NCBI GenBank assembly: GCA_022574775.1
Contig: JACZRI010000003.1
Coordinates: 34,308 to 98,307 of the forward strand
Reading direction: 5' to 3'
From: Patescibacteria group bacterium
GTDB lineage: Bacteria; Patescibacteriota; Minisyncoccia; Minisyncoccales; RBG-13-36-15
DNA length: 64,000 nt
The position numbers and the translations under genes are program-made. This document shows, piece after piece, positions 3,744 through 63,790 of the stretch. The notes beneath the pieces are model-generated. The model searched no databases. It saw only the letters and a list, made by a program, of their open reading frames with translations, and had not been told where the DNA came from. Each line of letters begins with the position of its first letter. The stretch's first letter is position 1.

Positions 3744-4760
3744 GTGTTTAAGGATAAGGTATACAATAAGAAGATGAAAAAGACGAGTTTGCAAAAGTTA
3801 CTACCAGGTTTAAAGAGAAATGTTTTACTAAAAAACTATACTACTTTTAAAATTGGGGGTGCCGCCCAATTTTTTTTTGTTGCGAAAAATAAAAAAGATG
3901 TAATGAAAGCAGTCCAAACGTCCAAAAAATTAAAGCTTCCATTTTTTATTCTAGGAGAGGGAAGTAATTTGTTGATATCTGATAGGGGATTTAAAGGGTT
4001 AGTTGTCAAAATACGAAATACGAAATACGAGATACCCCGCACCAGAACAAGTTCGGTGCGGGGCAGGCAAAACATTCTGGTTTATGCAGAAGCTGGGGTT
4101 TCTTTCCCTGTTTTGGTTAAGGCAACGACTGAATTGGGATTGTCTGGATTAGAGTGGGCAGGTGGATTGCCAGGTACTCTAGGTGGAGCAATAAGGGGTA
4201 ATGCAGGAGCATTTAGAGGAGAAATAAAAGATGTTATTTTGGAAGTTGAAGCTTTGGATGAAAAAGGTAATTTAAAAACATTATCTCGAAAGCAATGTAA
4301 TTTTTCTTATCGATCCTCTATTTTTAAAAAAAATAACTGGATTGTTTTATCAACTGCGCTAAAACTGGGAAAAGGAAATAAAAAATTGATTCAGTCGATT
4401 GCAAAAAGTCATATAAGATATCGAGAAGAAAAACATCCACTTGAATATCCTAATGCCGGCAGTATTTTTAAAAACTGTGACCTCAAAAAAATTCCAAAAA
4501 GACTAAGAGCCAGTTTTAATAAAGTTGTAAAGACAGATCCATTTCCATTAATACCTTCGGCCCACCTTATTTCAGAAGCTGGATTGAAAGGATTAAGAGT
4601 TGGCCAGGCAGAAGTTTCAACCAAGCACCCAAATTATATTGTTAATCTGGGTAATACTACAGCAAAAGATGTAATAAAATTAATAAATTTAGTAAAGAAA
4701 GAAGTAAAAGATAAATTTGGAATAGTATTAGAAGAGGAAATAAAACTTGTAGGGTTTTAA
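3744..4760 (+). CDS. murB: UDP-N-acetylenolpyruvoylglucosamine reductase MurB (alternative start at 3774); carries a 36 nt in-frame palindromic insertion at 4036-4071
   Basis: NYTTFKIGG and GEGSNLLISD FAD-binding motifs plus a MurB C-terminal domain. The PRTRTSSVRGRQ segment has no counterpart in reference MurB alignments. Confidence 0.8.
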   Translation: MFKDKVYNKKMKKTSLQKLLPGLKRNVLLKNYTTFKIGGAAQFFFVAKNKKDVMKAVQTSKKLKLPFFILGEGSNLLISDRGFKGLVVKIRNTKYEIPRTRTSSVRGRQNILVYAEAGVSFPVLVKATTELGLSGLEWAGGLPGTLGGAIRGNAGAFRGEIKDVILEVEALDEKGNLKTLSRKQCNFSYRSSIFKKNNWIVLSTALKLGKGNKKLIQSIAKSHIRYREEKHPLEYPNAGSIFKNCDLKKIPKRLRASFNKVVKTDPFPLIPSAHLISEAGLKGLRVGQAEVSTKHPNYIVNLGNTTAKDVIKLINLVKKEVKDKFGIVLEEEIKLVGF

Positions 4761-4980: not shown

Positions 4981-5070
4981 ATGGTAAAGAAAAAAGCAAA
5001 GAAAAAGAAGAAAAAGGCAGTAGTAAAGAAAAAAGCAACAAAGTCTAAAAAAAGAAAAAAAAGAAGATAA
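4981..5070 (+). CDS. Lys-rich 29 aa micro-ORF (MVKKKAKKKKKKAVVKKKATKSKKRKKRR) bracketed by promoter P1 and a terminator; could instead be an sRNA
   Basis: An open frame of 29 codons lies between a consensus-like promoter and an intrinsic terminator. No homolog was recognised. Confidence 0.25.
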   Translation: MVKKKAKKKKKKAVVKKKATKSKKRKKRR

Positions 5071-6168: not shown

Positions 6169-7317
6169 ATGAACAATAAACTTTCAAAAAAAGAAAAACA
6201 TCTTGCCAAACTTGTTTCTGAATACGCAAAACTGAACCTAAAAGAGTATAAAAAAGTAAGGAATATTACTCAAAAATACAAGACAAAAAAAGTTGAGACC
6301 ATTGATGTTAATTCCAAAAGTGTTTCTGAACTTTTATCTGCGATGGCAAAAACAGGTTTTCAGGGCAGGAAGCTTGGTGAAGTAGTTGATGTTTGGGAAG
6401 AGATGATTAAGGACAAGAATATAACTATCATAATGGGGTATACGGGTTCTTTAAGCACAACAGGTCAGTGGAAGATAATAAATTGGCTGATAGAAAATAG
6501 ATATATAGATGTTTTGGTTTCGACAGGAGCCAACATCTCTGAAGAGATTGTAGAGGGTATGGGGTATCATTACTGGCAAGGAAGCCAGAATGCTGATGAT
6601 GCTAAGTTATTAGATAGCGATATTAACAGGTATTATGATATTTTTGGGGACGATGTAGAGTATCTGGACATGATAAACTTGATAGCTAAATTTATCATGA
6701 CCTGTAAAGAAGGCTATAATTATTCTACAATGGAATTCCTGCGCGACTTTGGCCTGTGGTTGAATAAGAGAAAAGTAGACAGTATTGTAGGGGTTGCTGC
6801 CAAAGCCAAAGTTCCTGTTTTCAGTCCTGCTTTGGTAGATTCAGCGTATGGAGATGCTGTATTGATAGCAAAGAGTAAGAACTTCGATTTAATACTTGAT
6901 CAGGCAAAAGATTATGTAGAATTCATGGGTCTGGCAAGAAAGGTAAAGGATATCGGAGTAATTTACATAGGCGGTGGCGTACCAAAAGACTTCATTCAAC
7001 TTTTAGCGGTATCTGCGCCTCTTGAATATTATGATAAAAAAATACCTGACAGATCTGGAGGCGTTTTTCGTCCTGCAACCAACGAATGGTTTTATCCTCA
7101 CAAGTATGCTATACAAATAACTACTGACAGTCCGCAATGGGGAGGCCTTTCGGGATGCACTTTCGAAGAAGCGAGCAGCTGGGGCAAAGAAGAACCAGGT
7201 GGCAAGAATGTAACGTGCTACTGCGATGCCACCATAGCCTTGCCGATTGTCACACATGCTTTGGCAGAAAGAATCAAAACAAAAAGAAAAGGTACTGATT
7301 TTTCCGACCTTTTTTAA
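6169..7317 (+). CDS. Deoxyhypusine synthase-like protein (DHS family)
   Basis: The GSLSTTG...LVSTGANISEE Rossmann-like DHS signature is present, and the gene sits between pdaD and speB. Confidence 0.65.
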   Translation: MNNKLSKKEKHLAKLVSEYAKLNLKEYKKVRNITQKYKTKKVETIDVNSKSVSELLSAMAKTGFQGRKLGEVVDVWEEMIKDKNITIIMGYTGSLSTTGQWKIINWLIENRYIDVLVSTGANISEEIVEGMGYHYWQGSQNADDAKLLDSDINRYYDIFGDDVEYLDMINLIAKFIMTCKEGYNYSTMEFLRDFGLWLNKRKVDSIVGVAAKAKVPVFSPALVDSAYGDAVLIAKSKNFDLILDQAKDYVEFMGLARKVKDIGVIYIGGGVPKDFIQLLAVSAPLEYYDKKIPDRSGGVFRPATNEWFYPHKYAIQITTDSPQWGGLSGCTFEEASSWGKEEPGGKNVTCYCDATIALPIVTHALAERIKTKRKGTDFSDLF

Positions 7318-13976: not shown

Positions 13977-14014
13977 TTATCCTTCGATAAACTCAGGACA
14001 CTTCGACTTGCTTG
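13977..14014. repeat. GC-rich palindromic repeat, family B (core ATCCTTCGAnAAnCTCAGGACACTTCGACTT), truncated copy between secD and secF
   Basis: 37 of 40 nt identical to 25962-26001. Related copies lie at 53343 and 63676. Confidence 0.6.
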
Positions 14015-15004: not shown

Positions 15005-16093
15005 ATGATGAGGATTTCGACTGAGCCCAGCCGAAGTTTCTATCGAACCATGAAAAACCATTTTAATTTCGCTAAAATATGCCAGGATTTTCTAAAAGAC
15101 CTTTCCGTTAGGCATAAAGAGGTAATTTTAAGGCGTTTTGGCTTTAAGTCTGGCAACAGGGAAACCTTGGAATTTATCGGGATGAACTACGGTATTACAA
15201 GAGAGAGGGTGCGTCAGATTGAAAAAGACAGTTTTATGAAAATGGAGCCAAAGATTAAAAAATATGAAAAAGTATTTACCTCTTTTGTGAACCATTTTAA
15301 GAAACACGGGGAGTTGAAGAGAGAAGATATTTTACTCTCTCAGTTAACAGACCCTCAATTTCATCCTCATCTCAACTTTCTCTTGTCATTACATTCACGG
15401 TTCTCTAGGTTTTCTGACAGCAAGGAATTTTATCCTCTCTGGACGATAAATAATAATTCTTTAAAATTGGCTCTGCAAGTCAACAATTTTTTAATTTCAA
15501 AATTTAAAGAAAAAGGAATACCTTTGCCTTTTCCAAAAGTTTTCGAGCTTTGTAAAAAAAACCCACTTGTGATAAAAAAGAATCTTAATTCTCCTGCTAT
15601 ATTGTCTTTTATTGAAGCCTCAAAGGGTATTGAGCAGGGAATGAACAACCTTTTTGGACTTAAGGGTTGGCCAGAAATTAACCCAAAAGGAGTAAAAGAT
15701 AAAGCTTTCTTAGTTCTGAAAAGAGAGAAAAAACCAGTTCATTTTAATACTATAGCTTCTCTCATTTCTAAATTACCATTACAGGAGGAACTTGAAGAAA
15801 AAAAAGAAGTTATCTCACAGACTGTCCATAATGAACTTATCAAGGATCCAAGGTTTGTGTTGGTTGGCAGAGGAATGTATGCTCTTCGCGAGTGGGGGTA
15901 TGAACCCGGAGTAGTCAAGGATATTATCGTCAGACTGTTAAAAGAAAAGGAAAGATCAATGACCAGAGAAGAAATTATTAAGAAAACTTTGCAGCAGAGA
16001 TTCGTTAAGGAGAGCACCATTTTATTCAATCTCCAAGACAAAGGATATTTTTTAAAGAATTCTGATGGAAAATATACTTTAAGAAAAATATAA
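15005..16093 (+). CDS. DNA-binding protein with an N-terminal sigma70 region-4-like HTH and C-terminal HARE-HTH-like segments
   Basis: The segment KEVILRRFGF...ETLEFIGMNYGITRERVRQIEKDSFMKM resembles sigma region 4. The motif GMYALREWGY resembles the HARE-HTH of the RNAP delta subunit. Confidence 0.45.
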   Translation: MMRISTEPSRSFYRTMKNHFNFAKICQDFLKDLSVRHKEVILRRFGFKSGNRETLEFIGMNYGITRERVRQIEKDSFMKMEPKIKKYEKVFTSFVNHFKKHGELKREDILLSQLTDPQFHPHLNFLLSLHSRFSRFSDSKEFYPLWTINNNSLKLALQVNNFLISKFKEKGIPLPFPKVFELCKKNPLVIKKNLNSPAILSFIEASKGIEQGMNNLFGLKGWPEINPKGVKDKAFLVLKREKKPVHFNTIASLISKLPLQEELEEKKEVISQTVHNELIKDPRFVLVGRGMYALREWGYEPGVVKDIIVRLLKEKERSMTREEIIKKTLQQRFVKESTILFNLQDKGYFLKNSDGKYTLRKI

Positions 16094-17384: not shown

Positions 17385-17616
17385 TCGCTAGTTGCAAGCC
17401 TTCAAAGTTCCCAATTGTTTCAGACCCCAGCGTTTTGGGGTAATCTACGTCCTCCCCGGTTTTTTAAGCGAATAGAAGGGAATAAAGAGATATCCTCAAA
17501 TACTTATTATTGCGTAGTTTAAATGAGAATAGAAGGCGGGGTCTAAGAGTTACTTTGAAAACTTACCCCTCGCTTAAAGGTTTCGTAATTCGCATAAATT
17601 CATAATTCATAAGAGT

Positions 17617-19227
17617 ATGAATAAAGAAATAACACTTTTTGCAGAAACTACTTTCAGGAATTTGAGAAAGAAGTTTGGAATTAAGCTTGATGATAGAAGG
17701 AGACATGTTTATATCATAGGAAAAACCGGGATGGGAAAAACCGTGTTGCTTGAAAATATGATAATTCAAGATATTCAGCAGGGCAAAGGAGTAGGTTTTG
17801 TTGATCCTCATGGGGAGGCTGCGGAAGGATTGCTTGATTTCATTCCCTCCAACAGGATTAATGATGTAATTTATTTTAACCCTGCTGATCTGGAACATCC
17901 CATCGCTTTTAATATTATGGAGAAAGTGGATGTTGAGCATCGTCATTTGGTCGCAGGAGGATTAATGGGAGTTTTTAAAAAAATCTGGCCAGACGTCTGG
18001 TCAGCAAGAATGGAATACATTTTGAATAATTGTATTTTGGCTCTTTTGGAATACCCGGACTCAACCTTACTCGGAGTAAACCGGATGTTGGCCGATCCTG
18101 ATTATCGAAAAAAAGTCGTGGAAAAAGTTACAGATCCTATGGTAAAATCATTCTGGCTTCAAGAGTTTGCTAGGTATACTCAACGCTACGAGGTGGAGGC
18201 AACAGCTGCTATCCAGAATAAAGTCGGACAATTCATTTCAGCTCCTTTAATCAGAAATATTATTGGCCAGGTCAAGTCCACACTTGATATGAGGGATATT
18301 ATGGATAAAGGCAAAATTTTAATTTTGAATTTATCCAAAGGAAGAATAGGAGAAGATAATTCTCGGTTATTGGGGGCTCTTTTAATAACTAAATTGCAGT
18401 TAGCTGCTATGTCCCGCGTAGATGTACCAGAGGATGAGCGAAGAGATTTTTTTCTTTATGTTGATGAATTTCAGAATTACGCAACAGAGTCTTTCGTTAA
18501 TATTTTATCTGAAGCAAGGAAATATAGATTGTCCTTGATTTTGGCTCATCAGTACATTACCCAGATGGAGGAAACAGTAAGAGACGCAGTATTTGGAAAC
18601 GTGGGAACTATTATCGCTTTTCGGGTGGGAGCAGAAGATGCAGAATTTTTAGAAAAAGAATTTGTTCCTGAATTTACTGCCCAGGATCTAGTTAATTTAG
18701 CCAAATATAATATTTATTTAAAGCTGATGATTGATGGAATAGCAGGCTCTCCATTTTCTGCAGGGACTTTTCCTCCTTTTCCAAAGCTAGAGCATTCAAA
18801 TAGAGAGAAAATTATCAAGGCATCTAGGGAGAGATATGGGACGAAAAAAGAATTGGTAGAAGAGAAAATTATCAGATGGACAGGTATTGTAAACTCACTT
18901 CCACCCACTTCCGCCCAGACTGTTCTTTACGATGCAAAATGCTCACAATGCGGGAAACAGACAAAGGTTGTTTTTCCTCCAGATGGAGTGAGGCCTACTT
19001 ATTGTAAATCCTGCCGGAATAAAATGAAAAAAAGTGAGGCGCAAAGAGAGAGTGGAGAAGCTTCTATTTCTTTTAAGGAAGCCTTGAAAAAAGAACCAAC
19101 CTCTTTTTCTCCCAGAAAATTAAACAGAGAACCTTTTAAGAAAAGAAAAAACGTTAATGTAGAGGAATTAAAGAAAACATTAGATGAAATCTTAGAAAAA
19201 AGAGAAAATAAAGATTCCCAACAATGA
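17617..19227 (+). CDS. FtsK-HerA superfamily ATPase, TraD/VirD4 (type IV coupling protein)-like, with a C-terminal Cys4 zinc ribbon
   Basis: Walker A YIIGKTGMGKT within H-x-YIIG...VDPHGE context, Walker B FFLYVDEFQNY, and CSQCG...CKSCRNK. Confidence 0.55.
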   Translation: MNKEITLFAETTFRNLRKKFGIKLDDRRRHVYIIGKTGMGKTVLLENMIIQDIQQGKGVGFVDPHGEAAEGLLDFIPSNRINDVIYFNPADLEHPIAFNIMEKVDVEHRHLVAGGLMGVFKKIWPDVWSARMEYILNNCILALLEYPDSTLLGVNRMLADPDYRKKVVEKVTDPMVKSFWLQEFARYTQRYEVEATAAIQNKVGQFISAPLIRNIIGQVKSTLDMRDIMDKGKILILNLSKGRIGEDNSRLLGALLITKLQLAAMSRVDVPEDERRDFFLYVDEFQNYATESFVNILSEARKYRLSLILAHQYITQMEETVRDAVFGNVGTIIAFRVGAEDAEFLEKEFVPEFTAQDLVNLAKYNIYLKLMIDGIAGSPFSAGTFPPFPKLEHSNREKIIKASRERYGTKKELVEEKIIRWTGIVNSLPPTSAQTVLYDAKCSQCGKQTKVVFPPDGVRPTYCKSCRNKMKKSEAQRESGEASISFKEALKKEPTSFSPRKLNREPFKKRKNVNVEELKKTLDEILEKRENKDSQQ

Positions 19228-20297
19228 AGGTACTTTCAGATTTTGGTTTTGAAAATAAAAAAGTTTTGATGAGATGTGATTTTGATGTTCCCCTCGATGA
19301 AAAGGGGAATATTTTAGATGACTTTAGAATTGAACGGTCAATTCCCACAATTGTATATTTAACGAAAAAGAATGCAAAACTTATTTTAATGTGCCATCTG
19401 AAAGGATTTGGCGACGAGATAGTGAGCGTAGCTCCAATCCAGAAGAGATTAGCGGAATACCTGGATTGCCCGGTAATAAAAGCTAAAAATTGTGTTGGCA
19501 AGGAAATTGAAGACTGGATTTCGAAAATGTCTCCAGGAGATATTTTGCTCTTGGAAAATTTAAGATTTTATGCAGGCGAGAAAGAAAACGATCAGGAATT
19601 TGCCAGGAATTTGGCAAAATTAGGAGATATTTATATTAATGATGCTTTTGCTACTTGCCACAGAAAGCATGCTTCAATTGTTGGAGTGCCAAAATATCTA
19701 CCATCGGCAGCAGGGTTGGTTTTAATGGAAGAGATAAGGATATTGTCTAAGATCAGGAAAAATCCAGTAAGACCCTTAATAGCAATAATGGGGGGTACCG
19801 TTCAGGAAAAAAAAGGATTAATGTTCGTGGAAAAGATGTCACAAATCGCAGATTTTGTTTTAGTCGGCGGCCTAATTAAAAAATCAATTGAAAAAGAGAA
19901 ATTTTCTTTTACCAGTCCTCAGAAAATTATCCTTCCAGTAAAAGAAGCTATGTCTGACTTTGATTTAGGGCCAGAAACCTTGAAAATTTTTAAAGAAAAA
20001 ATTTCTCAGGCAAAAACTATCTTTTGGTCGGGACCTGTGGGGAAGATTGAAGAAGAAAGATTTTCGAAAGGAACTATGGAAATTGCCCAGGCAATTATCA
20101 GCGCTTCGGCTTTCAAAGTAGCAGGAGGGGGAGCAACAATTGATTTTCTAAGAGACCATAATTTAGCTTCCAAATTTAATCATCTTTCCACGGGAGGGGG
20201 ATCTGCATTGGCTTTTTTAGCAGGGGAGAAATTGCCAGGTATTGCCGCCCTCGAAGAGGGCGAGCCTCGCTCAGTGAAACTGAGCGGGAAGCCTTAA
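19224..20297 (+). CDS. pgk: Phosphoglycerate kinase with an atypical C-terminal extension (EEGEPRSVKLSGKP) built from two GC-rich hairpins
   Basis: RCDFDVPLDE N-terminus, GGGA..DFL, and a ...GGGSALAFLAGEKLPGIAAL C-terminus. Confidence 0.9.
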   Translation: MKVLSDFGFENKKVLMRCDFDVPLDEKGNILDDFRIERSIPTIVYLTKKNAKLILMCHLKGFGDEIVSVAPIQKRLAEYLDCPVIKAKNCVGKEIEDWISKMSPGDILLLENLRFYAGEKENDQEFARNLAKLGDIYINDAFATCHRKHASIVGVPKYLPSAAGLVLMEEIRILSKIRKNPVRPLIAIMGGTVQEKKGLMFVEKMSQIADFVLVGGLIKKSIEKEKFSFTSPQKIILPVKEAMSDFDLGPETLKIFKEKISQAKTIFWSGPVGKIEEERFSKGTMEIAQAIISASAFKVAGGGATIDFLRDHNLASKFNHLSTGGGSALAFLAGEKLPGIAALEEGEPRSVKLSGKP

Positions 20298-20301
20298 AAT
20301 A

Positions 20302-20372
20302 ATCCGAATACCATCCGAATCGTATCCGAATGTCACTAATAAATTATTCGGGTCATTTGGATTTTATTCGTA
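20302..20372. promoter_or_regulatory. Helically phased repeat array ATCCGAAT x3 (11 bp period) plus inverted ATTCGG/ATTCGTA copies upstream of the DHH gene
   Basis: ATCCGAAT at 20302, 20313 and 20324. Inverted copies at 20346 and 20367. Confidence 0.45.
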
Positions 20373-20388
20373 GATTAGGATTACATTT

Positions 20389-21543
20389 ATGGAAATAAAA
20401 AACCTAAAAAAAGTAGCTGATAGGATTTTAAAGGCAGTAAAAAATAAGGAGAAAATAATTTTATATGGTGATGCCGATATGGATGGTATATCTTCGGTTA
20501 TTATTCTCAAAGAAACTTTGAAGAATCTGGGAGGGGGTGTAGCATCAGTTTATTTTCCAGACAGAGAGACTGAAGGGTATGGGTTAAATGAGGAGGCTTT
20601 GCATTTTTTAAAACCAATAGCCCCTGCTCTTTTAATTACTTTAGACTGCGGGATTGGGAATTTTGAGGAGACAAAATTAGCAAAAAAAATGGGGTTTGAA
20701 GTAATTATTGTTGATCACCATGTGGTTTTAGGGAAATTGCCAGAAAATGCAATTGTTGTGGACCTGAAACAGAAAGGAGATACTTATCCTTTTAAAGAAT
20801 TTGCCGCAACCGGTGTTACTTTTAAGCTTTGTCAATTGTTGCTGGGAGAAAAGTTAAGCGAGAACTTGAAAAATAATTTTTTAGAGTTGGTAGCTTTAGC
20901 AACTTTAGCAGATATGATGCCGGAGCAAGAAGAAAATAAAACATTTATTGAGGATGGATTAAAATCTCTGGAAACAACCTATCGGCCTGGACTGAAAGTT
21001 TTTTTTGAGATTGATACTATCAAGGATCTTCCTTCAACCCGTCAAATTGCCCAGAAAATTATTTCTGCTTTGAATATTCCTACTCCTAAGGACCATTTAA
21101 ATAAATCCTATGACTTATTGACCTGTTCTTCTTTTTCTATCGCAAAGAGTTTAGCCGAAGAGCTTTTGGATAAAGCAGAACAGAAAAAGGCCAGAGTAAG
21201 AGAGATTGTGCAGACAGTAGAAGAAAGGCTTTCCAATAAAGAAGAGCTTATCGTTTTTGAAGGGGATCCTTACTGGTCCATTATTTTATCTGGGACAGTC
21301 GCTTCAAAAATATGTTATACTTATCGTAAACCCACTTTTATTTTTAAAAAGAGAGAAAAAGAAAGCCAGGGGGCAGTAAGAGTGCCAAAAGGTTTAGATG
21401 CGGTGAAGGCAATGATGCACTGCAAGAAATTTTTAATTACCTTCGGGGGACATCCTCCGGCAGCCGGGTTTCGATTAGATAATAAAAACTTAGAGGAATT
21501 TAAAAAATGCCTGAATGACTATTTTAGCGAACACAAGAATTGA
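20389..21543 (+). CDS. DHH-family phosphoesterase (RecJ-like/NrnA-like)
   Basis: DHH motifs GDADMDGISS and IVDHH. Confidence 0.65.
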   Translation: MEIKNLKKVADRILKAVKNKEKIILYGDADMDGISSVIILKETLKNLGGGVASVYFPDRETEGYGLNEEALHFLKPIAPALLITLDCGIGNFEETKLAKKMGFEVIIVDHHVVLGKLPENAIVVDLKQKGDTYPFKEFAATGVTFKLCQLLLGEKLSENLKNNFLELVALATLADMMPEQEENKTFIEDGLKSLETTYRPGLKVFFEIDTIKDLPSTRQIAQKIISALNIPTPKDHLNKSYDLLTCSSFSIAKSLAEELLDKAEQKKARVREIVQTVEERLSNKEELIVFEGDPYWSIILSGTVASKICYTYRKPTFIFKKREKESQGAVRVPKGLDAVKAMMHCKKFLITFGGHPPAAGFRLDNKNLEEFKKCLNDYFSEHKN

Positions 21544-21554
21544 TGCGCAAATTT

Positions 21555-21598
21555 TATACGAATGCTATACGAACAAATTATTTGTATCATTCGTATGT
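21555..21598. promoter_or_regulatory. Repeat array TATACGAA x2 (11 bp period), a CAAATtATTTG palindrome, and an inverted ATTCGTAT
   Basis: TATACGAA at 21555 and 21566; ATTCGTAT at 21591. Confidence 0.45.
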
Positions 21599-21742
21599 TA
21601 TTAGCCCCAGAACCAATCCTCACTTCGTTCGAATGGTACGGGGCAAGCATTAATTATGGTTTAACTTGTTTGGAGTTTCCTATGCCCGCCCCGTATTTCC
21701 CGACTTGTCGGGATAGTACCGGGGTATATTAGTGTCGCGTTT

Positions 21743-23605
21743 ATGGGACAACAATCATATTATGGCATTGTAGGCAACGGAGAGACTTGTGCATTGATTT
21801 CTTCCACAGGGAGCATTGACTGGTTTTGTCTGCCTTCATTTGACGGGAATATGGTTTTTTCCAAAGCTCTGAATCCAAATTTAGGAGAGTCTTTTTATAT
21901 TGAGTTATTTGATGGAGAAGAGGGGATATTGCCAAAGAAATTTAGCCAAAGCTACATTAAAAACACGAATATTTTAGTAACAGAAATAGAGTATAAACCT
22001 GTAAAGCTGAAGGTTATTGATTTTATGCCGTGGAAAGGAATTTCAGAAAGCATTCGAGAAAAAAGATATCTGTTCCGTATATTAGAGGTTCAGAATAAAA
22101 CACAGCGAAGAAAAAGTATTAAAATAAGTTTATCAACAGAGAAAGGAGGCGAGATAAAAGAAAGAGGTTTTATTGAAGATAAGAATTTTGCGCTCGGGGT
22201 TTATATAGAAAAAAACACATTTGAATTAAAGCCAAAGGGTCATAAAGAAACATTCATTGTATTATCTTATGGAGAGACAAGGGCTAAGGCAGAATATCTA
22301 TTAAATAAGGCAAAACGAATAAATATAAGAGACGAATTGGCAAAGACTGAAAACTTCTGGAAAAATTGGTTAGCGAGAGGATATAAGATTTCCTTCAAAG
22401 ACAAAGATTATGAAGACATGTATTCTCGTTCTTTGCTGGTCTGCAAGCTTTTAACATACCTTGAAACGGGAGCTTTTCTTGCAGCCCCCACAGCATCTTT
22501 TCCAGTTACTCCAAGCACAGCCGAGAACTGGGATTACAGGTTTTGTTGGTTAAGAGACAGCTATTTTGTATCTCGTGCATTTCTTAAAACAGGCCACTAT
22601 GAAGAAGTGAGAGATCTATTAGAATTTTTCTACTCTATTCAAGAATCAGACGGGAGTTGGCTTCCATTATATACGATAAGCGGTAAGAAACTAAGAAAAG
22701 AGGTTGTAATAGAAGCGGAAGGAAAGATTATACGGATGGGCAATGCAGCTAAAAATCAGCTGCAGTTGGATAATGAAGGGAGCGTCTTACATACAACATA
22801 CCTCTACTATCTTTTTACTAAAGAAAAAAGTTTTCTTCGGGAATACTGGAAAAAAATCGTGAAGGCAGCTGACTGGATCTCAAAGAACTATCAAAGGCCA
22901 GAGAATGGATTATGGGAGTTGCGTGAGAAAGAGCATAGAAAAAAAGCGCAGTGGGTTTACGGAAAAGTTATGTGTTATGTAGGCTTGGAGTCAGCTATTA
23001 AGATTGGAGAAGTTTTGGAGAAAAAGTTAAGGCCAAAGTGGGAGATGGTAAAAAACAGCCTTAAAAATGATATCCTTAAAGAAGGGTGGTCTAATCAAAG
23101 AAAATCTTTTTTACAGCTCTACGATGCTGATTCTCAAATAGACATCTCTGTTCTTGCGATAGAGGATTACGGGCTTTTGAGTCCGCTCAATCCAAAGATA
23201 CGTAAAACCGTGCAACTCATAGAAGAAAAATTAGTAACAAAAGGTTTTGGAGTGAAGAGGTTTGAGGATGCAAATCTGCCATTCTACCTGCCAACCTTAT
23301 GGCTTGCCACTCACTATATAAGGGCTGGAGATAAAGAAAAAGCAAAGAAATATATAGCAGCTTGTATAAGGTCAAGCACTAATCTATATCTGTGCGCAGA
23401 ACATTTTGATCCTATCAAAGGTGAGCAGCATGGCAATTTCCCGCAGGCATTTAATCATTCAATGTTTGTGGAGACACTGCTTTGCCTAAAAGAAGAAAAG
23501 TATGCACTTAGATTTTTAAATGTCCTGAATATTCACTTTAAAACATTTTTGAGCTTTTTAAGTAAGGTGAAGCCAAAGAAAGGATTTTATCTCCGAAAAA
23601 AATGA
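21743..23605 (+). CDS. Glycoside hydrolase family 15 (glucoamylase/glucodextranase-like)
   Basis: N-terminal GIVGNGETCALISSTGSIDWFCLPSFD, and a C-terminal (alpha/alpha)6 domain with the WDYRFCWLRDS motif. Confidence 0.75.
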   Translation: MGQQSYYGIVGNGETCALISSTGSIDWFCLPSFDGNMVFSKALNPNLGESFYIELFDGEEGILPKKFSQSYIKNTNILVTEIEYKPVKLKVIDFMPWKGISESIREKRYLFRILEVQNKTQRRKSIKISLSTEKGGEIKERGFIEDKNFALGVYIEKNTFELKPKGHKETFIVLSYGETRAKAEYLLNKAKRINIRDELAKTENFWKNWLARGYKISFKDKDYEDMYSRSLLVCKLLTYLETGAFLAAPTASFPVTPSTAENWDYRFCWLRDSYFVSRAFLKTGHYEEVRDLLEFFYSIQESDGSWLPLYTISGKKLRKEVVIEAEGKIIRMGNAAKNQLQLDNEGSVLHTTYLYYLFTKEKSFLREYWKKIVKAADWISKNYQRPENGLWELREKEHRKKAQWVYGKVMCYVGLESAIKIGEVLEKKLRPKWEMVKNSLKNDILKEGWSNQRKSFLQLYDADSQIDISVLAIEDYGLLSPLNPKIRKTVQLIEEKLVTKGFGVKRFEDANLPFYLPTLWLATHYIRAGDKEKAKKYIAACIRSSTNLYLCAEHFDPIKGEQHGNFPQAFNHSMFVETLLCLKEEKYALRFLNVLNIHFKTFLSFLSKVKPKKGFYLRKK

Positions 23606-23629
23606 AAGGTGATTCCAATATACTGATGC

Positions 23630-23679
23630 ATACGAATTATATAAATAATTTATTCGCATCATTAAAACTTATTCGCATA
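23630..23679. promoter_or_regulatory. Repeat array ATACGAAT / ATTCGCAT x2 upstream of rnhA
   Basis: ATACGAAT at 23630; ATTCGCAT at 23652 and 23671, spaced 22 and 19 nt apart. Confidence 0.4.
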
Positions 23680-23690
23680 TTACCGATTTT

Positions 23691-24131
23691 ATGAAAAAAA
23701 TTCTCATTTATACTGACGGCGGCTCCAGAAGCAATCCTGGACCGGCAGCCATTGGAATTGTTTTTTGTAATGAAAAAGGCCAAAAGATTAAAGAATTTTC
23801 AGAATATCTGGGAGAAGCGACAAACAACGAAGCTGAATATCAAGCTGCTATTTTTGCTTTAAAAAAATTCAAAGCTCTTTTTTCAAAAAAATTAGCCAGT
23901 CGTGCAGAAATTGAATTAAAATCAGATTCAGAGCTTTTGGTGAATCAACTATTAGGAAAATATAAAATTGTGGATCCAAAAATTCAACCTCTTTTTTTAC
24001 AACTTTGGAATTTAACGCTTGATTTTAAAAAAGTCAAATTCAAATTTATTCCTAGAGAAAAAAACAAAGAGGCAGACCGTTTGGTCAACGAAGCCCTTGA
24101 TGGGGCATCCAAGACCCAAAAACTTCTCTAA
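23691..24131 (+). CDS. rnhA: Ribonuclease H (RNase HI-like)
   Basis: IYTDGGSRSNPGPAAIG..NNEAEYQA catalytic DEDD signature. Confidence 0.75.
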   Translation: MKKILIYTDGGSRSNPGPAAIGIVFCNEKGQKIKEFSEYLGEATNNEAEYQAAIFALKKFKALFSKKLASRAEIELKSDSELLVNQLLGKYKIVDPKIQPLFLQLWNLTLDFKKVKFKFIPREKNKEADRLVNEALDGASKTQKLL

Positions 24132-24149
24132 AAAACCATATAATAATTC

Positions 24150-25436
24150 ATGACAAACAAAAAATTACCACTTATTTTTCTGTTAGCCGTTATATTGTCT
24201 TTTGCCATATCTCCTTCTGCAGCCTTTGCTGTAAGCGATGAAGAATTATTTAATGAGTTACTTGATAAATTAATAGATGTTTCTTTAGCCCTTTCTTTGC
24301 TTCAACAACAAATCAATGACCTAATAAATTCCTCACAGCCTTTGCATCAACTGGCATTAGGCGCATACTTAAAAGATTTATTTGAAAGTAATGAGATTAT
24401 TTTAGACAAAGATGATTTTTTAGAACAAACGGAAAATCCTTATCTTAGTTTCGCGAAAATATTAAATTTAATTCCGTCTTCCTATAAGGTGGATAAGAGA
24501 ATAACTCAAAGGGAAGTTGATCAAATTTCAGAGCAGTTTCTTTTACTAAAAGACCGGCTACTTCTTGACGGACTTTACGGAAAAGTCGATATGCATGAGC
24601 ACTATCGATCTGGAGGCGATATAGAGAAATTTTTGAAAGCAGCCGGTAGTTTGGGAATTTCTAAAATTGTTTTTGTGCCAACAGGATTGGGTCCTGACAA
24701 TAAAGGCTATATATTTCATCAGAGCTTTCTCATTAGATATATTAAAAAATTATACCCAGAGAAAATTATTGCTTTTTGTACTATTGATGAAGCAGACCCA
24801 AAAGCAGCTGAAGTTTTTGAAGACTGCCTTAAAAACGGCGGGCAGGGTTTGAAACTTCTCGGCGGCCACCCAAGTTTTTATGACGAACCTTTTAATTCTG
24901 AAAATATGTACAAAGTGTATCAAAAAGCTGCTGAATATCAGGTGCCCATTTTGCTCCACGGAAGTATTATCAATGTCCCAGAAACAAAAAATCAACTTCA
25001 CCAAGTATATTCAGATTTTCCCGAAGTAACTTTCATCCATGCTCATTACTGTTCCGCAATTTTTAGAGGCATTAACCTTGATCAATGTGCAGAGTTTTTG
25101 GATAAATATCCTAATGTATATGTTGACCTCTCAATGGGAGGAGGCATTAAAAGATACCATCGTTATTTTAGAGAAGATTTGGCGAAAGTAAAAGATTTTA
25201 TTTTAACTTATCAGGACAGAATTTTATTTGGCTCAGATATTATTTTAGATCGTGCCACATACAAAGATTTTGATTTTATTTACGACAGAATTCAGTGCGA
25301 TCTTGATTTACACCAGAAAAAAGAATACACTTGCCCTTATGGAGAAAAGGATGTTTTACACCAGGGTTTTGATTTAGACCGAGATATTCTTAAAAAACTT
25401 TATTTTGAAAATCCAAAGAAAGCTTTTAATTTTTAA
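24150..25436 (+). CDS. Secreted metal-dependent amidohydrolase-family (TIM-barrel) protein
   Basis: Signal peptide. HEHY..., HAHY and D..L motifs suggest an amidohydrolase_2 fold. Confidence 0.45.
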   Translation: MTNKKLPLIFLLAVILSFAISPSAAFAVSDEELFNELLDKLIDVSLALSLLQQQINDLINSSQPLHQLALGAYLKDLFESNEIILDKDDFLEQTENPYLSFAKILNLIPSSYKVDKRITQREVDQISEQFLLLKDRLLLDGLYGKVDMHEHYRSGGDIEKFLKAAGSLGISKIVFVPTGLGPDNKGYIFHQSFLIRYIKKLYPEKIIAFCTIDEADPKAAEVFEDCLKNGGQGLKLLGGHPSFYDEPFNSENMYKVYQKAAEYQVPILLHGSIINVPETKNQLHQVYSDFPEVTFIHAHYCSAIFRGINLDQCAEFLDKYPNVYVDLSMGGGIKRYHRYFREDLAKVKDFILTYQDRILFGSDIILDRATYKDFDFIYDRIQCDLDLHQKKEYTCPYGEKDVLHQGFDLDRDILKKLYFENPKKAFNF

Positions 25437-25445
25437 CTATGGACA

Positions 25446-25476
25446 TATAAGAATTAAAAAACCCGCCGGTGAGGCG
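25446..25476 (+). terminator. Rho-independent terminator, possibly bidirectional with the rnpB 3' end
   Basis: CCCGCC-ggtga-GGCGGG hairpin followed by ATTTTT. Confidence 0.6.
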
Positions 25477-25477
25477 G

Positions 25478-25853
25478 GATTTTTAATGTCCTAGCAAGTC
25501 TATAAGCCGAATTCTGTATTTGTGTGATCATTTGTCTGGGCCCCGATTTACATCTGAGCTCAAGCGAACTACTCTTTCACAAAAATTCTAGATAAACCCA
25601 GAATTTCTGATTTGTTCTTGCACCCAATAAGGATTTAGCCGTTTCACTCCTACATTGCTGCAGGACTACTCCGACAATAGTCGGAGTGCTCAACCTTTCG
25701 GTTTCGCGCGTCTCTGTTCGCACCTCTAGTCTTACGACCGACGGCCGTTAACCGCTATATTTTTTGACCCCGATATCTATTCGGAGAAATGGTGTTCGGA
25801 CTTTCCTCCCCCTGTCATTGCTGGCAAGGAGTAATCACCCAACTTACTAGGAC
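25478..25853 (-). ncRNA. rnpB: RNase P RNA, bacterial type A
   Basis: The minus strand reads GGGGGAGGAAAGUCCGAACACC (P4 5' strand), GGAGUGAAACGGCU and ACAGAAUUCGGCUUAUAG (P4 3' strand). P1 pairs UCCUAGUAAGU with ACUUGCUAGGA, and the region is GC-enriched. Confidence 0.8.
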
Positions 25854-25961: not shown

Positions 25962-26046
25962 GTTATCCTTCGACAAGCTCAGGACACTTCGACTTACTTG
26001 CACTGAGCGAGGCCTGAGCAGAGCGAAGGACGAGTCGAAGTGTGAC
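25962..26046. repeat. Family B palindromic repeat, full composite copy immediately upstream of and overlapping the murJ start
   Basis: CCTTCGacaaGCTCAGG...CCTGAGCagagCGAAGG and ACACTTCGACT...AGTCGAAGTGT form interleaved inverted pairs. Confidence 0.6.
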
Positions 26047-34259: not shown

Positions 34260-34330
34260 TGGGAGGTCATCTAATGGTAGGATGCAGGCCTCTGGAGCCT
34301 GGCATGATGGTTCGAGTCCATCCCTCCCAG
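34260..34330 (+). tRNA. tRNA-Gln (anticodon CTG); CCA not encoded
   Basis: Acceptor TGGGAGG/CCTCCCA, anticodon stem CAGGC/GCCTG with loop CTCTGGA, T-arm GATGG-TTCGAGT-CCATC. Confidence 0.75.
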
Positions 34331-34547: not shown

Positions 34548-34850
34548 ATGAAGAGGACTATTCGTGAACCATACAAAATATTTTTTGAGACACTCGGGAA
34601 TAAAACGAGGTGGGATATTATCCATTTGCTTCAAAAAGGAAAACTTAATGTAACTGCTATTGTAAAAACTCTTGGCTATGAACAGAGTCTCATCTCTCAT
34701 CACTTAGGGCGGCTTGAAAGATGTGGTTTTGTAGGTGTTGAAATAAATAAGAAAGAACGCATTTATACCTTAAACAAAAAAACAATTAAGCCTCTTTTGA
34801 AACTTATGGACAAACATATAAACAGGTATTGTAAGAATCTTTGCCGATAA
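34548..34850 (+). CDS. ArsR/SmtB-family transcriptional regulator
   Basis: HTH segment TRWDIIHLLQKGKLNVTAIVKTLGYEQSLISHHLGRLERCGFV. Confidence 0.7.
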   Translation: MKRTIREPYKIFFETLGNKTRWDIIHLLQKGKLNVTAIVKTLGYEQSLISHHLGRLERCGFVGVEINKKERIYTLNKKTIKPLLKLMDKHINRYCKNLCR

Positions 34851-52877: not shown

Positions 52878-53091
52878 ATCCTTTCGGATTTGAGTACGGG
52901 GCTAGAATACGAAATACATACGTTATTTTACAAGATGCTCGCCCCGTACCATGCGAACGCAGTGAGAATTGGTACTGGGGCAACCTCCAAAGAAAAAATA
53001 TAATGTTATCGCTCGCTCGGCGCCGGTAAGCCGTAGCTCGCGATATTTGTTCGAGACCTTTTTAAAAAAAGGTTCTCGAGCTCTCAAAATT

Positions 53092-63675: not shown

Positions 63676-63790
63676 GATCCTTCAACAAAGTTCAGGGTCG
63701 CCCTGAGTTAAATCGAAGGGCGATAAACTCAGGGTAACCCTGAGTCCTTCGGTCCTGAATTCAGGGTTGAAGGATAAAGTCGAAGGATTT
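63676..63790. repeat. Cluster of degenerate family B palindromic repeats (CCTTCg/CGAAGG and CTCAGGG/CCCTGAG arms)
   Basis: Several hairpins, for example CCTTCaacaaaGTTCAGGG-tcg-CCCTGAGttaaatCGAAGG and ACTCAGGG-taa-CCCTGAGT. Confidence 0.55.

Follow-up and report, generated by a model that had tools for sequence, protein, structure and literature searches.

Repeat arrays along a run of co-directional genes

The 64,000-nucleotide stretch analyzed here (positions 34,308 to 98,307 of contig JACZRI010000003.1, assembly GCA_022574775.1; hereafter the window) comes from a Patescibacteria group bacterium, and its closest relatives are metagenome-assembled genomes (MAGs) of Patescibacteria / Candidatus Nealsonbacteria. 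Around six co-directional genes, encoding a TraD/VirD4-like ATPase, Pgk, a DHH/DHHA1 phosphoesterase, a GH15 hydrolase, RNase H and an amidohydrolase, it carries four intergenic arrays of repeats related to the heptamer ATTCGTA: a solo array before the TraD-like gene and three palindromic sites, numbered 1 to 3, between pgk and the DHH gene, between the DHH and GH15 genes, and between the GH15 and RNase H genes (Table 1). By their architecture we assign all four to a dispersed family of ATTCGTA heptad modules, of which they are diverged, somewhat decayed local copies. The amidohydrolase gene is followed by an RNase P RNA, encoded on the opposite strand, and by murJ. A scan of the 7.8 kb from 17617 to 25436 revealed no strong sigma-70-type promoter or terminator, the first convincing terminator being located at 25462-25478; the simplest view of the three palindromic sites is therefore that they are intercistronic. 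None of the array sites was flagged as an intrinsic terminator (a G+C-rich stem followed by a T run).

The repeats had been noted before, in an original prediction that read them as helically phased operator or iteron arrays for a single DNA-binding protein, possibly marking a local regulon; every repeat quoted there was found at the position given. In order to assess whether their frequency simply reflects AT-rich DNA, the octamer ATNCGAAT/ATTCGNAT was counted. Across the whole window it was not enriched (14 observed, 10.9 expected), and ATNCGAAT with one mismatch was likewise found about as often as predicted (185 against 211), as would follow if AT-rich octamers merely clustered by chance within AT-rich intergenic DNA. 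The intergenic distribution was nevertheless far from chance; 11 matches lay in the 9,439 nt of intergenic DNA, where 1.8 were expected, and not one of 400 Markov simulations reached 11. Nine of the 11 fell within four consecutive gene boundaries. Two intergenic regions held at least three matches (three copies each; simulated mean 0.005), and three held at least two (simulated mean 0.06). Since the same architecture recurs in at least 120 stretches elsewhere, we regard chance clustering as scarcely credible: agreement with AT-rich expectation holds for the window as a whole and fails for its intergenic DNA.

The three palindromic sites share a further regularity, in that exactly 14 nt lie between the two members of the innermost inverted pair in each case. 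The loops are homologous, with GTCACTAATAAATT in site 1, TATATAAATAATTT in site 3 and, as the reverse complement, GATACAAATAATTT in site 2; because it is the reverse complement of the site 2 loop that aligns, site 2 runs opposite to sites 1 and 3. Helical phasing, as first proposed, is only partly borne out: the 11-bp period, exact in the mirror arm of site 1, belongs to the copies of this genome, and in the template of the family the heptads start 8, 10-11 and 7 nt apart. Site 1 is identical in L003, the sole near-identical second assembly, and extending the search 10 kb upstream on the contig added no further sites.

Table 1. Heptad arrays in the window and the genes around them (positions are those of the window)
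Feature	Coordinates	Strand	Starts of units or genes	Position or basis
TraD-like site, solo four-heptad module, TTTCGTA ATTCGCA taa ATTCATA ATTCATA	17581..17611	+	ATTCGCAT at 17588, then ATTCATA twice	5 nt to ATG 17617
Site 1 stop-proximal (mirror) arm, three ATCCGAAT units 11 bp apart	20302..20331	+	20302, 20313, 20324	begins 4 nt past pgk stop
Site 1 loop, 14 nt, GTCACTAATAAATT	20332..20345	+		sequence reading
Site 1 start-proximal arm, ATTCGGG, ATTTGGA, ATTCGTA, ATTAGGA	20346..20380	+	20346, 20355, 20366, 20374	starts 9, 11, 8 nt apart
Site 2 palindrome, ATACGAAT gct ATACGAAC, 14-nt loop, ATTCGTAT	21556..21596	-	21556, 21567, 21589	inverted-repeat scan
Site 3 mirror unit, single ATACGAAT	23630..23637	+	23630	24 nt past GH15 stop codon
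Site 3 loop, 14 nt, TATATAAATAATTT	23638..23651	+		sequence reading
Site 3 start-proximal arm, ATTCGCA twice (as ATTCGCAT)	23652..23685	+	23652, 23671	direct repeat; 5 nt to ATG 23691 (RNase H)
Six co-directional genes: TraD-like, pgk, DHH, GH15, RNase H, amidohydrolase	17617..25436	+	17617, 19224, 20389, 21743, 23691, 24150	context

Hairpin folds were obtained for sites 1-3, and the genes on either side appear to be co-transcribed. In the predicted sense-strand fold of site 1 the mirror arm pairs with the right arm, and the whole fold reaches -25.4 kcal/mol (z = -3.45 against shuffled sequence); the sense strand of site 2 folds at -13.8 kcal/mol (z = -4.0). The start-proximal arm of site 1 ends 8 nt before the ATG of the DHH/DHHA1 gene (20389), and its 9/11/8 spacing fits the 8/10-11/7 of the family template. 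At site 3 the 19-nt distance between units equals that from heptad 1 to heptad 3 of the template, the positions of heptads 2 and 4 having decayed. Site 2 is arranged differently; its two-heptad arm faces the stop codon of the DHH gene, and the site as a whole lies 146 nt from the GH15 start.

The heptad family in other genomes and other repeats in the window

In order to define the family, metagenome contigs were scanned with the exact pattern ATTCGTATATTCGTA-N0-12-ATTCGTA, which demands three perfect heptads. At least 120 stretches with at least 130 distinct arrays were recovered, and the family-wide figures given here refer to the arrays among the matches listed, with genes called as simple longest open reading frames and taxonomy checked for a few contigs. 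The template that emerges is ATTCGTA-T-ATTCGTA-N3/4-ATTCGTA-ATTCGTA-G. In at least one third of the arrays a mirror module (CTACGAAT TACGAAT N3-4 TACGAAT ATACGAAT) lies upstream, across a loop of 5-66 nt. Conservation is confined to the heptads; flanks and loops carry no information, and the spacers of the two arms, which often differ in length, show no complementarity (matches at 8 of 39 positions, where 33% would be expected). A hidden Markov model (HMM) trained on 43 strict modules matched the window only marginally, best at site 2 (E=0.1) and second best at 17581-17611 (E=0.18), and missed site 1 owing to its C/G variant; it is therefore by architecture and orthologous position, rather than by score, that the window sites are placed in the family.

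Orthologous position was apparent at several genes. When the loci around the DHH gene were compared among 72 related genomes, tandem ATTCGTA arrays were found directly before start codons; arrays orthologous to site 1 stand upstream of the DHH gene in L004, L010, L038 and L047, and canonical modules occupy the position before the TraD-like gene in the relatives L005, L019, L008 and L065. Arrays also precede secF in L009 and L065 and murJ in L004. Full palindromes span the gap from stop to start codon of co-directional genes, and in L083 they do so in five of about 12 sizeable gaps; within that locus the loops vary in length and sequence from copy to copy, and arms share spacers.

Most of the array-bearing contigs look like Patescibacteria, with arrays in Bacteroidota as well. 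L081 and L086 encode a urocanase 85-88% identical to proteins of Bacteroidia MAGs, and the cultured Bernardetia sp. Wsw4-3y2 (Bacteroidota; NZ_CP147018.1, about 425,300-425,420; L212, 2410-2535) has a 125-nt spacer with two heptamer families; directly next to the lipB stop codon stands (ATTCGTA)4, that is (TACGAAT)4, and directly before the following ATG stands (CTGATAA)5, the published TAACTGA repeat. Viral contigs were scanned for the module and yielded none, only (ATTCGTAT)n octamer microsatellites; two of these, in L200 and L202 (IMG/VR), run to at least 16 copies at the ends of high-GC viral contigs beside GC-rich repeats, and may be terminal repeats without relation to the module.

Could such arrays be largely neutral or selfish, arising by replication slippage or duplication and tolerated in short intergenic spacers with little or no function? 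Exact tandem arrays with three or more copies numbered 35 at period 7 in the sampled loci, compared with 8 at period 6, 4 at period 8 and 2 at period 9, and the period-7 arrays use many different units. Other heptamer arrays of this kind occur in L034 (at several positions, for example 7080-7150) and in L087 (12691-12753), among them AAGTACG x3 facing ACTTCCG x3, and CTTGTAA x9; heptamer arrays in general, beyond ATTCGTA, appear to be a feature of Patescibacteria. The presence of an array varies among close relatives, and copies within one genome share spacers or loops, as do the loops of the window and the arms of L083. Heptanucleotide units are, moreover, the commonest long simple repeats in prokaryotes according to the summary of Mrazek et al. 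(2007) given in PMC4679880. Neutrality would not, however, account for the retention of one heptad and one 8/10-11/7 architecture in two phyla and in genomes between which DHH protein identity is only 28-75%; nor for the recurrence of arrays at orthologous genes (DHH, TraD-like, secF), their orientation bias and narrow distance to start codons, or the enrichment of ribosomal-protein genes downstream of them. We consider it unlikely that the arrays are mostly functionless.

The window holds other repeats in addition. A second dispersed element, ATCCTTCGA(C/T)AA(G/A)CTCAGGACACTTCGAC...GTCGAAGTGTG, occurs at 13979-14007 and 25965-26044, in a related stretch at about 63690-63790, and in L010 downstream of the DHH gene; the element folds into a long hairpin, and the GTG or TTG start codon of the gene that follows (secF, murJ) lies within its 3' strand. 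A third motif, intergenic hairpins of the form GTACGGGGC...GCCCCGTAC, lies at 21636-21695 (between site 2 and the GH15 start), 52894-52949, 34348 and 5082. Within the murB reading frame, 4009-4029 reads (AAATACG)3, an in-frame 21-nt repeat whose unit is close to TACGAAT. A short open reading frame at 4981-5070, between two TTGACA-type promoters and upstream of a hibernation-factor-like gene (5172), encodes the extremely lysine-rich peptide MVKKKAKKKKKKAVVKKKATKSKKRKKRR.

Position at start codons and candidate modes of action

The arrays are found only in intergenic DNA, about one per 5-60 kb, and their relation to start codons is close; between the last heptad and the start codon there are most often 5 nt and mostly 3-13 nt, and at the window sites the template usually stops 5-9 nt short of a start codon. 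Arrays without a mirror arm pointed towards the start codon in 22 cases and away from it in 5 (p=0.0015), and in gaps between co-directional genes 24 such arrays were in the sense orientation and 8 antisense (p=0.007). Several arrays lie inside universally conserved operons (L29|S17, L10|L7/L12, secY|adk). Others follow promoters: the murJ array of L004 lies downstream of a TTGTCA...TTAAAAT promoter, and L093 and L106 also have canonical promoters upstream of their arrays. In L127, 4+13 heptads are placed between the stop codon of a pilin gene and the pilin terminator. Shine-Dalgarno tetramers were at background in two sets of loci (12% against 14% in controls; 10% against 10%).

An array of 33 nt spanning roughly -40 to -6 from the start codon could itself be a promoter, recognized by an unusual holoenzyme or an activator and giving leaderless or very short-leader mRNAs. 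In the window and in loci L004-L195, a TATAAT-like element peaks sharply at exactly 6 nt before the ATG, for example at the ArsR-family gene at 34548, an indication that these Patescibacteria commonly use leaderless mRNAs. The use of such TATAAT-N6-ATG promoters, the 5-nt mode between array and start codon, and the lack of any other visible promoter at the window sites would all suit a promoter function. The module, though, has no -10-like hexamer (A at -11, T at -7), and a conserved -35 element is missing upstream; its distance from the ATG spreads over 3-13 nt where genuine leaderless promoters peak sharply at N6; transcription from mirror arms would run antisense into the preceding gene; the L127 array leads directly into a terminator; and the arrays of L004, L093 and L106 already have canonical promoters upstream. 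The module was also compared by hand with sigma-70, ECF-type, sigma-54 and phage-type promoter geometries, and fitted none of them. A promoter is thus an improbable identity for the array. T-loop or tRNA mimicry, DNA-uptake sequences, invertons and integron attC sites were dropped on grounds of distribution or architecture.

The genes downstream of the arrays are diverse. The 58 start-adjacent downstream proteins, all from other genomes, carry 94 Pfam families, none dominant, and include GAPDH, adenylate kinase, GroES, ClpB, UvrA, LigA, DnaE, pilins, PilC, RecJ/DHH, XseB and IF-1; ribosomal proteins make up 10 of the 58, an enrichment of about three-fold (binomial p about 0.004). The local regulon of the original prediction, and with it enrichment upstream of a coherent gene set, finds no counterpart in targets so incoherent. 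A cognate regulator was sought downstream of arrays and in the window, and none recurred. The only DNA-binding genes found in the window encode an ArsR-family protein (34548) and a protein with sigma-70 region 4 and HARE-HTH domains (15005-16093), neither of which is associated with arrays elsewhere. The latter gene precedes a DUF8128 gene and the TraD-like gene, a synteny kept in relatives. An iteron reading fared no better. Iterons are direct repeats of 17-22 bp in a replication origin, beside rep or dnaA and accompanied by an AT-rich unwinding region; the units here are of 7-8 bp, lie between pgk, DHH, GH15 and rnhA without replication context, and are dispersed over more than 120 unrelated loci.

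From the position, orientation and context of the arrays, we tentatively favor the view that the module is a transcribed element acting at the translation start or on intercistronic RNA. Its contexts, which would all be transcribed ones, favor action as RNA. We infer that the module is transcribed within a polycistronic or leader RNA and acts post-transcriptionally. The sense-strand AUUCGUA heptads would then form a largely unstructured platform abutting the start codon, and solo modules, when folded as RNA, are indeed predicted to be nearly unstructured. In lineages without Shine-Dalgarno pairing, this platform might be read heptad by heptad by a candidate RNA-binding factor or by the ribosome, setting the translation of its cistron. 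A mirror arm, where there is one, would form an intercistronic hairpin with the platform that could mask it, uncouple the cistrons or stabilize the upstream message. Slippage and local duplication, favoring 7-nt units, are probably how the arrays arise and change. That the heptad is conserved, and not the helix, points to unit-by-unit recognition by a protein or the ribosome, a property that a binder of double-stranded DNA could share. The idea of a single factor reading one repeated cis-element thus survives from the original prediction as a plausible one, whereas iterons, a classical operator and a local regulon do not.

A more specific proposal is that the module serves as a Shine-Dalgarno-independent translation signal, whose reader would be the ribosome itself or a dedicated RNA-binding protein that may be horizontally mobile, for selected and often highly expressed cistrons in Shine-Dalgarno-poor phyla (Patescibacteria, Bacteroidota), with the mirror arm as a built-in mask. 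We put this forward as speculation and consider it doubtful in its full form. Pairing of AUUCGUA with the tail of the rRNA would bear on it; no 16S rRNA 3' end was present in the approximately 2 Mb of sampled loci.

Several observations weigh against action as RNA. Across 42 full elements the sense hairpin was the more stable in 18 and the antisense hairpin in 24 (p=0.26), and G-U-compatible and A-C mismatches between the arms were about equally frequent; with neither strand nor G-U asymmetry, nothing marks the hairpin as an RNA structure over a DNA palindrome. A heptad in the opposite orientation lies near about three quarters of the arrays among the matches listed, a symmetry that would also be expected from a binder of double-stranded DNA. 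The orientation bias is about 3-4 to 1 and not absolute; site 2 of the window is inverted and far from the next start codon; and one Bacteroidia array overlaps its ATG, which fits poorly with a fixed, Shine-Dalgarno-like spacing. The many other heptamer units that form arrays in these genomes mean that the pattern may be partly mutational. The three perfect heptads required by the search pattern and the crude gene calls also shape the collection on which the argument draws, and that argument is one from sequence position and context, taken across the family.

Some of these observations lend weight to DNA operators, that is, to arrays in which a protein of the ribbon-helix-helix type binds each 7-8-bp unit of double-stranded DNA and serves as a global repressor, roadblock or organizer. 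Close-packed units of this size in direct and inverted orientation would suit binders like omega or MetJ; both arms are about equally conserved and share the same most-variable heptad position; fold stability lacks strand asymmetry; spacers vary freely; and the window copies have their 11-bp period. Yet the arrays hold no consistent position relative to canonical promoters, being upstream or downstream of them, intercistronic, or 3' of genes and in 3' untranslated regions, and the three intergenic window sites, at cistron boundaries, have no strong promoter. The loop between arms ranges over 5-66 nt, solo arrays abut and face start codons, and no ribbon-helix-helix protein or other regulator recurs beside arrays. 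A classical operator, as first supposed, is at odds with this placement, and the wider operator explanation, to which we assign a small but appreciable chance, is less economical than one in which the module acts as RNA.

Relation to known repeats

The closest parallel to the ATTCGTA arrays is provided by TAACTGA heptamer direct repeats, which were described in marine Beggiatoaceae, some Cyanobacteria and Bacteroidetes (MacGregor 2015, PMC4679880). Sets of 2-6 copies are mostly intergenic, in "forward" orientation and a few nt from a start codon, where they overlap the expected ribosome-binding site; in their hosts Shine-Dalgarno sequences are rare, and the downstream genes show no functional pattern, although translation genes are over-represented and sets occur in ribosomal-protein operons (PMC4679880). 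Strain differences in that class take the form of indels in 7-nt steps. Their phylogenetic spread is sporadic, and close relatives may lack the repeats, and S1, Csp or CsrA-like proteins have been proposed as readers without tests (PMC4679880). The ATTCGTA arrays resemble them in having a 7-nt unit with at least two direct copies at all four window sites (and a pure tandem of four in Bernardetia), in being intergenic and forward and ending a few nt before the start codon (5, 8 and 5 nt at three of the four window sites), and in Shine-Dalgarno sequences at control frequency, diverse downstream genes and placement within ribosomal-protein operons. They differ in the sequence of the unit; in a fixed four-heptad module with spacers of 1 nt and 3-4 nt in place of pure tandem copies; in the usual presence of a mirror arm, compared with one inverted repeat in 170 BOGUAY sets (PMC4679880); and in a host range that takes in Patescibacteria. 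As the unit is ATTCGTA and not TAACTGA, the two belong to the same class as different families. The ATTCGTA unit is not mentioned in PMC4679880 or its supplement, and a search of the accessible literature for the heptad strings returned nothing relevant.

Hairpin-forming heptamers are known as well. Those named STRR reportedly go back to Mazel et al. in 1990. Cyanobacterial STRR 7-bp repeats form a hairpin between the co-transcribed hupS and hupL that is conserved across genera, and transcript stability or translational coupling has been proposed as its role (PMC2670836). The ATTCGTA repeats likewise fold as hairpins, at sites 1-3 and in the 42 family elements, between apparently co-transcribed genes; the STRR units (CCCCAGT and others) and phylum differ, and no four-unit module or abutment on start codons has been described for them. 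Deletion of heptamer repeats upstream of Nostoc recO alters reporter output (bioRxiv 10.1101/2022.06.06.494920).

Unit-by-unit reading has precedents among proteins binding DNA and RNA. The omega repressor of pSM19035 and MetJ, at its met-boxes, each read contiguous 7-8-bp units, direct or inverted, one after another, and their arrays overlap defined promoters beside the regulator's own genes; the ATTCGTA arrays, in contrast, have neither promoter overlap nor a cognate gene, are dispersed over unrelated loci and face start codons. On RNA, the GGA sites of CsrA and the (G/U)AG repeats of TRAP present a short motif several times along a leader, the final copy falling at the ribosome-binding region. 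The ATTCGTA motif differs from these, and its complementary cis arm has no counterpart in such leaders. Long arrays, such as the one that follows the L127 pilin gene, are reminiscent of sponge RNAs.

Other repeat classes were considered and set aside. REP/BIME elements consist of individually palindromic units, and MITEs have terminal inverted repeats, a conserved interior and a target-site duplication; like them, the ATTCGTA arrays are dispersed intergenic inverted pairs between co-directional genes, with similar copies within a genome. Both were rejected in that the ATTCGTA arms are sets of direct repeats with non-complementary spacers, loops vary in L083 and spacers too can differ among the copies of a genome, no target-site duplication or transposase was seen, and the unit is kept across phyla. 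TIGR arrays, in which box C/box D units flank two variable spacers beside a tas gene with a Nop domain (bioRxiv 10.64898/2026.09.09.750476), were rejected as well; the heptads of the module are constant and are not spacers, the module lacks box C/D, and no Nop-domain match was found among the 30 window proteins scanned. Neither the window sites nor the canonical elements of L083, L094, L127, L159 and L116 matched an Rfam family, the only signals being far-sub-threshold miRNA-hairpin noise.

The ATTCGTA arrays are a newly delineated family within the known class of heptamer repeats at gene starts, set apart by the four-heptad module, the mirror arm and the Patescibacteria hosts. Heptanucleotide arrays near start codons were noted in 1990 (STRR) and in 2015 (TAACTGA), so far with no established mechanism; to these the family adds a sharply defined, strongly conserved module, and a host phylum with few recognizable regulators and, in the lineages sampled, no Shine-Dalgarno signal. 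A cultured host, Bernardetia sp. Wsw4-3y2, makes experiments feasible. If the module does set the translation of chosen cistrons, it would explain how operon-internal genes are expressed independently without Shine-Dalgarno pairing, and would improve the annotation of gene starts and operons in the genomes of candidate phyla.

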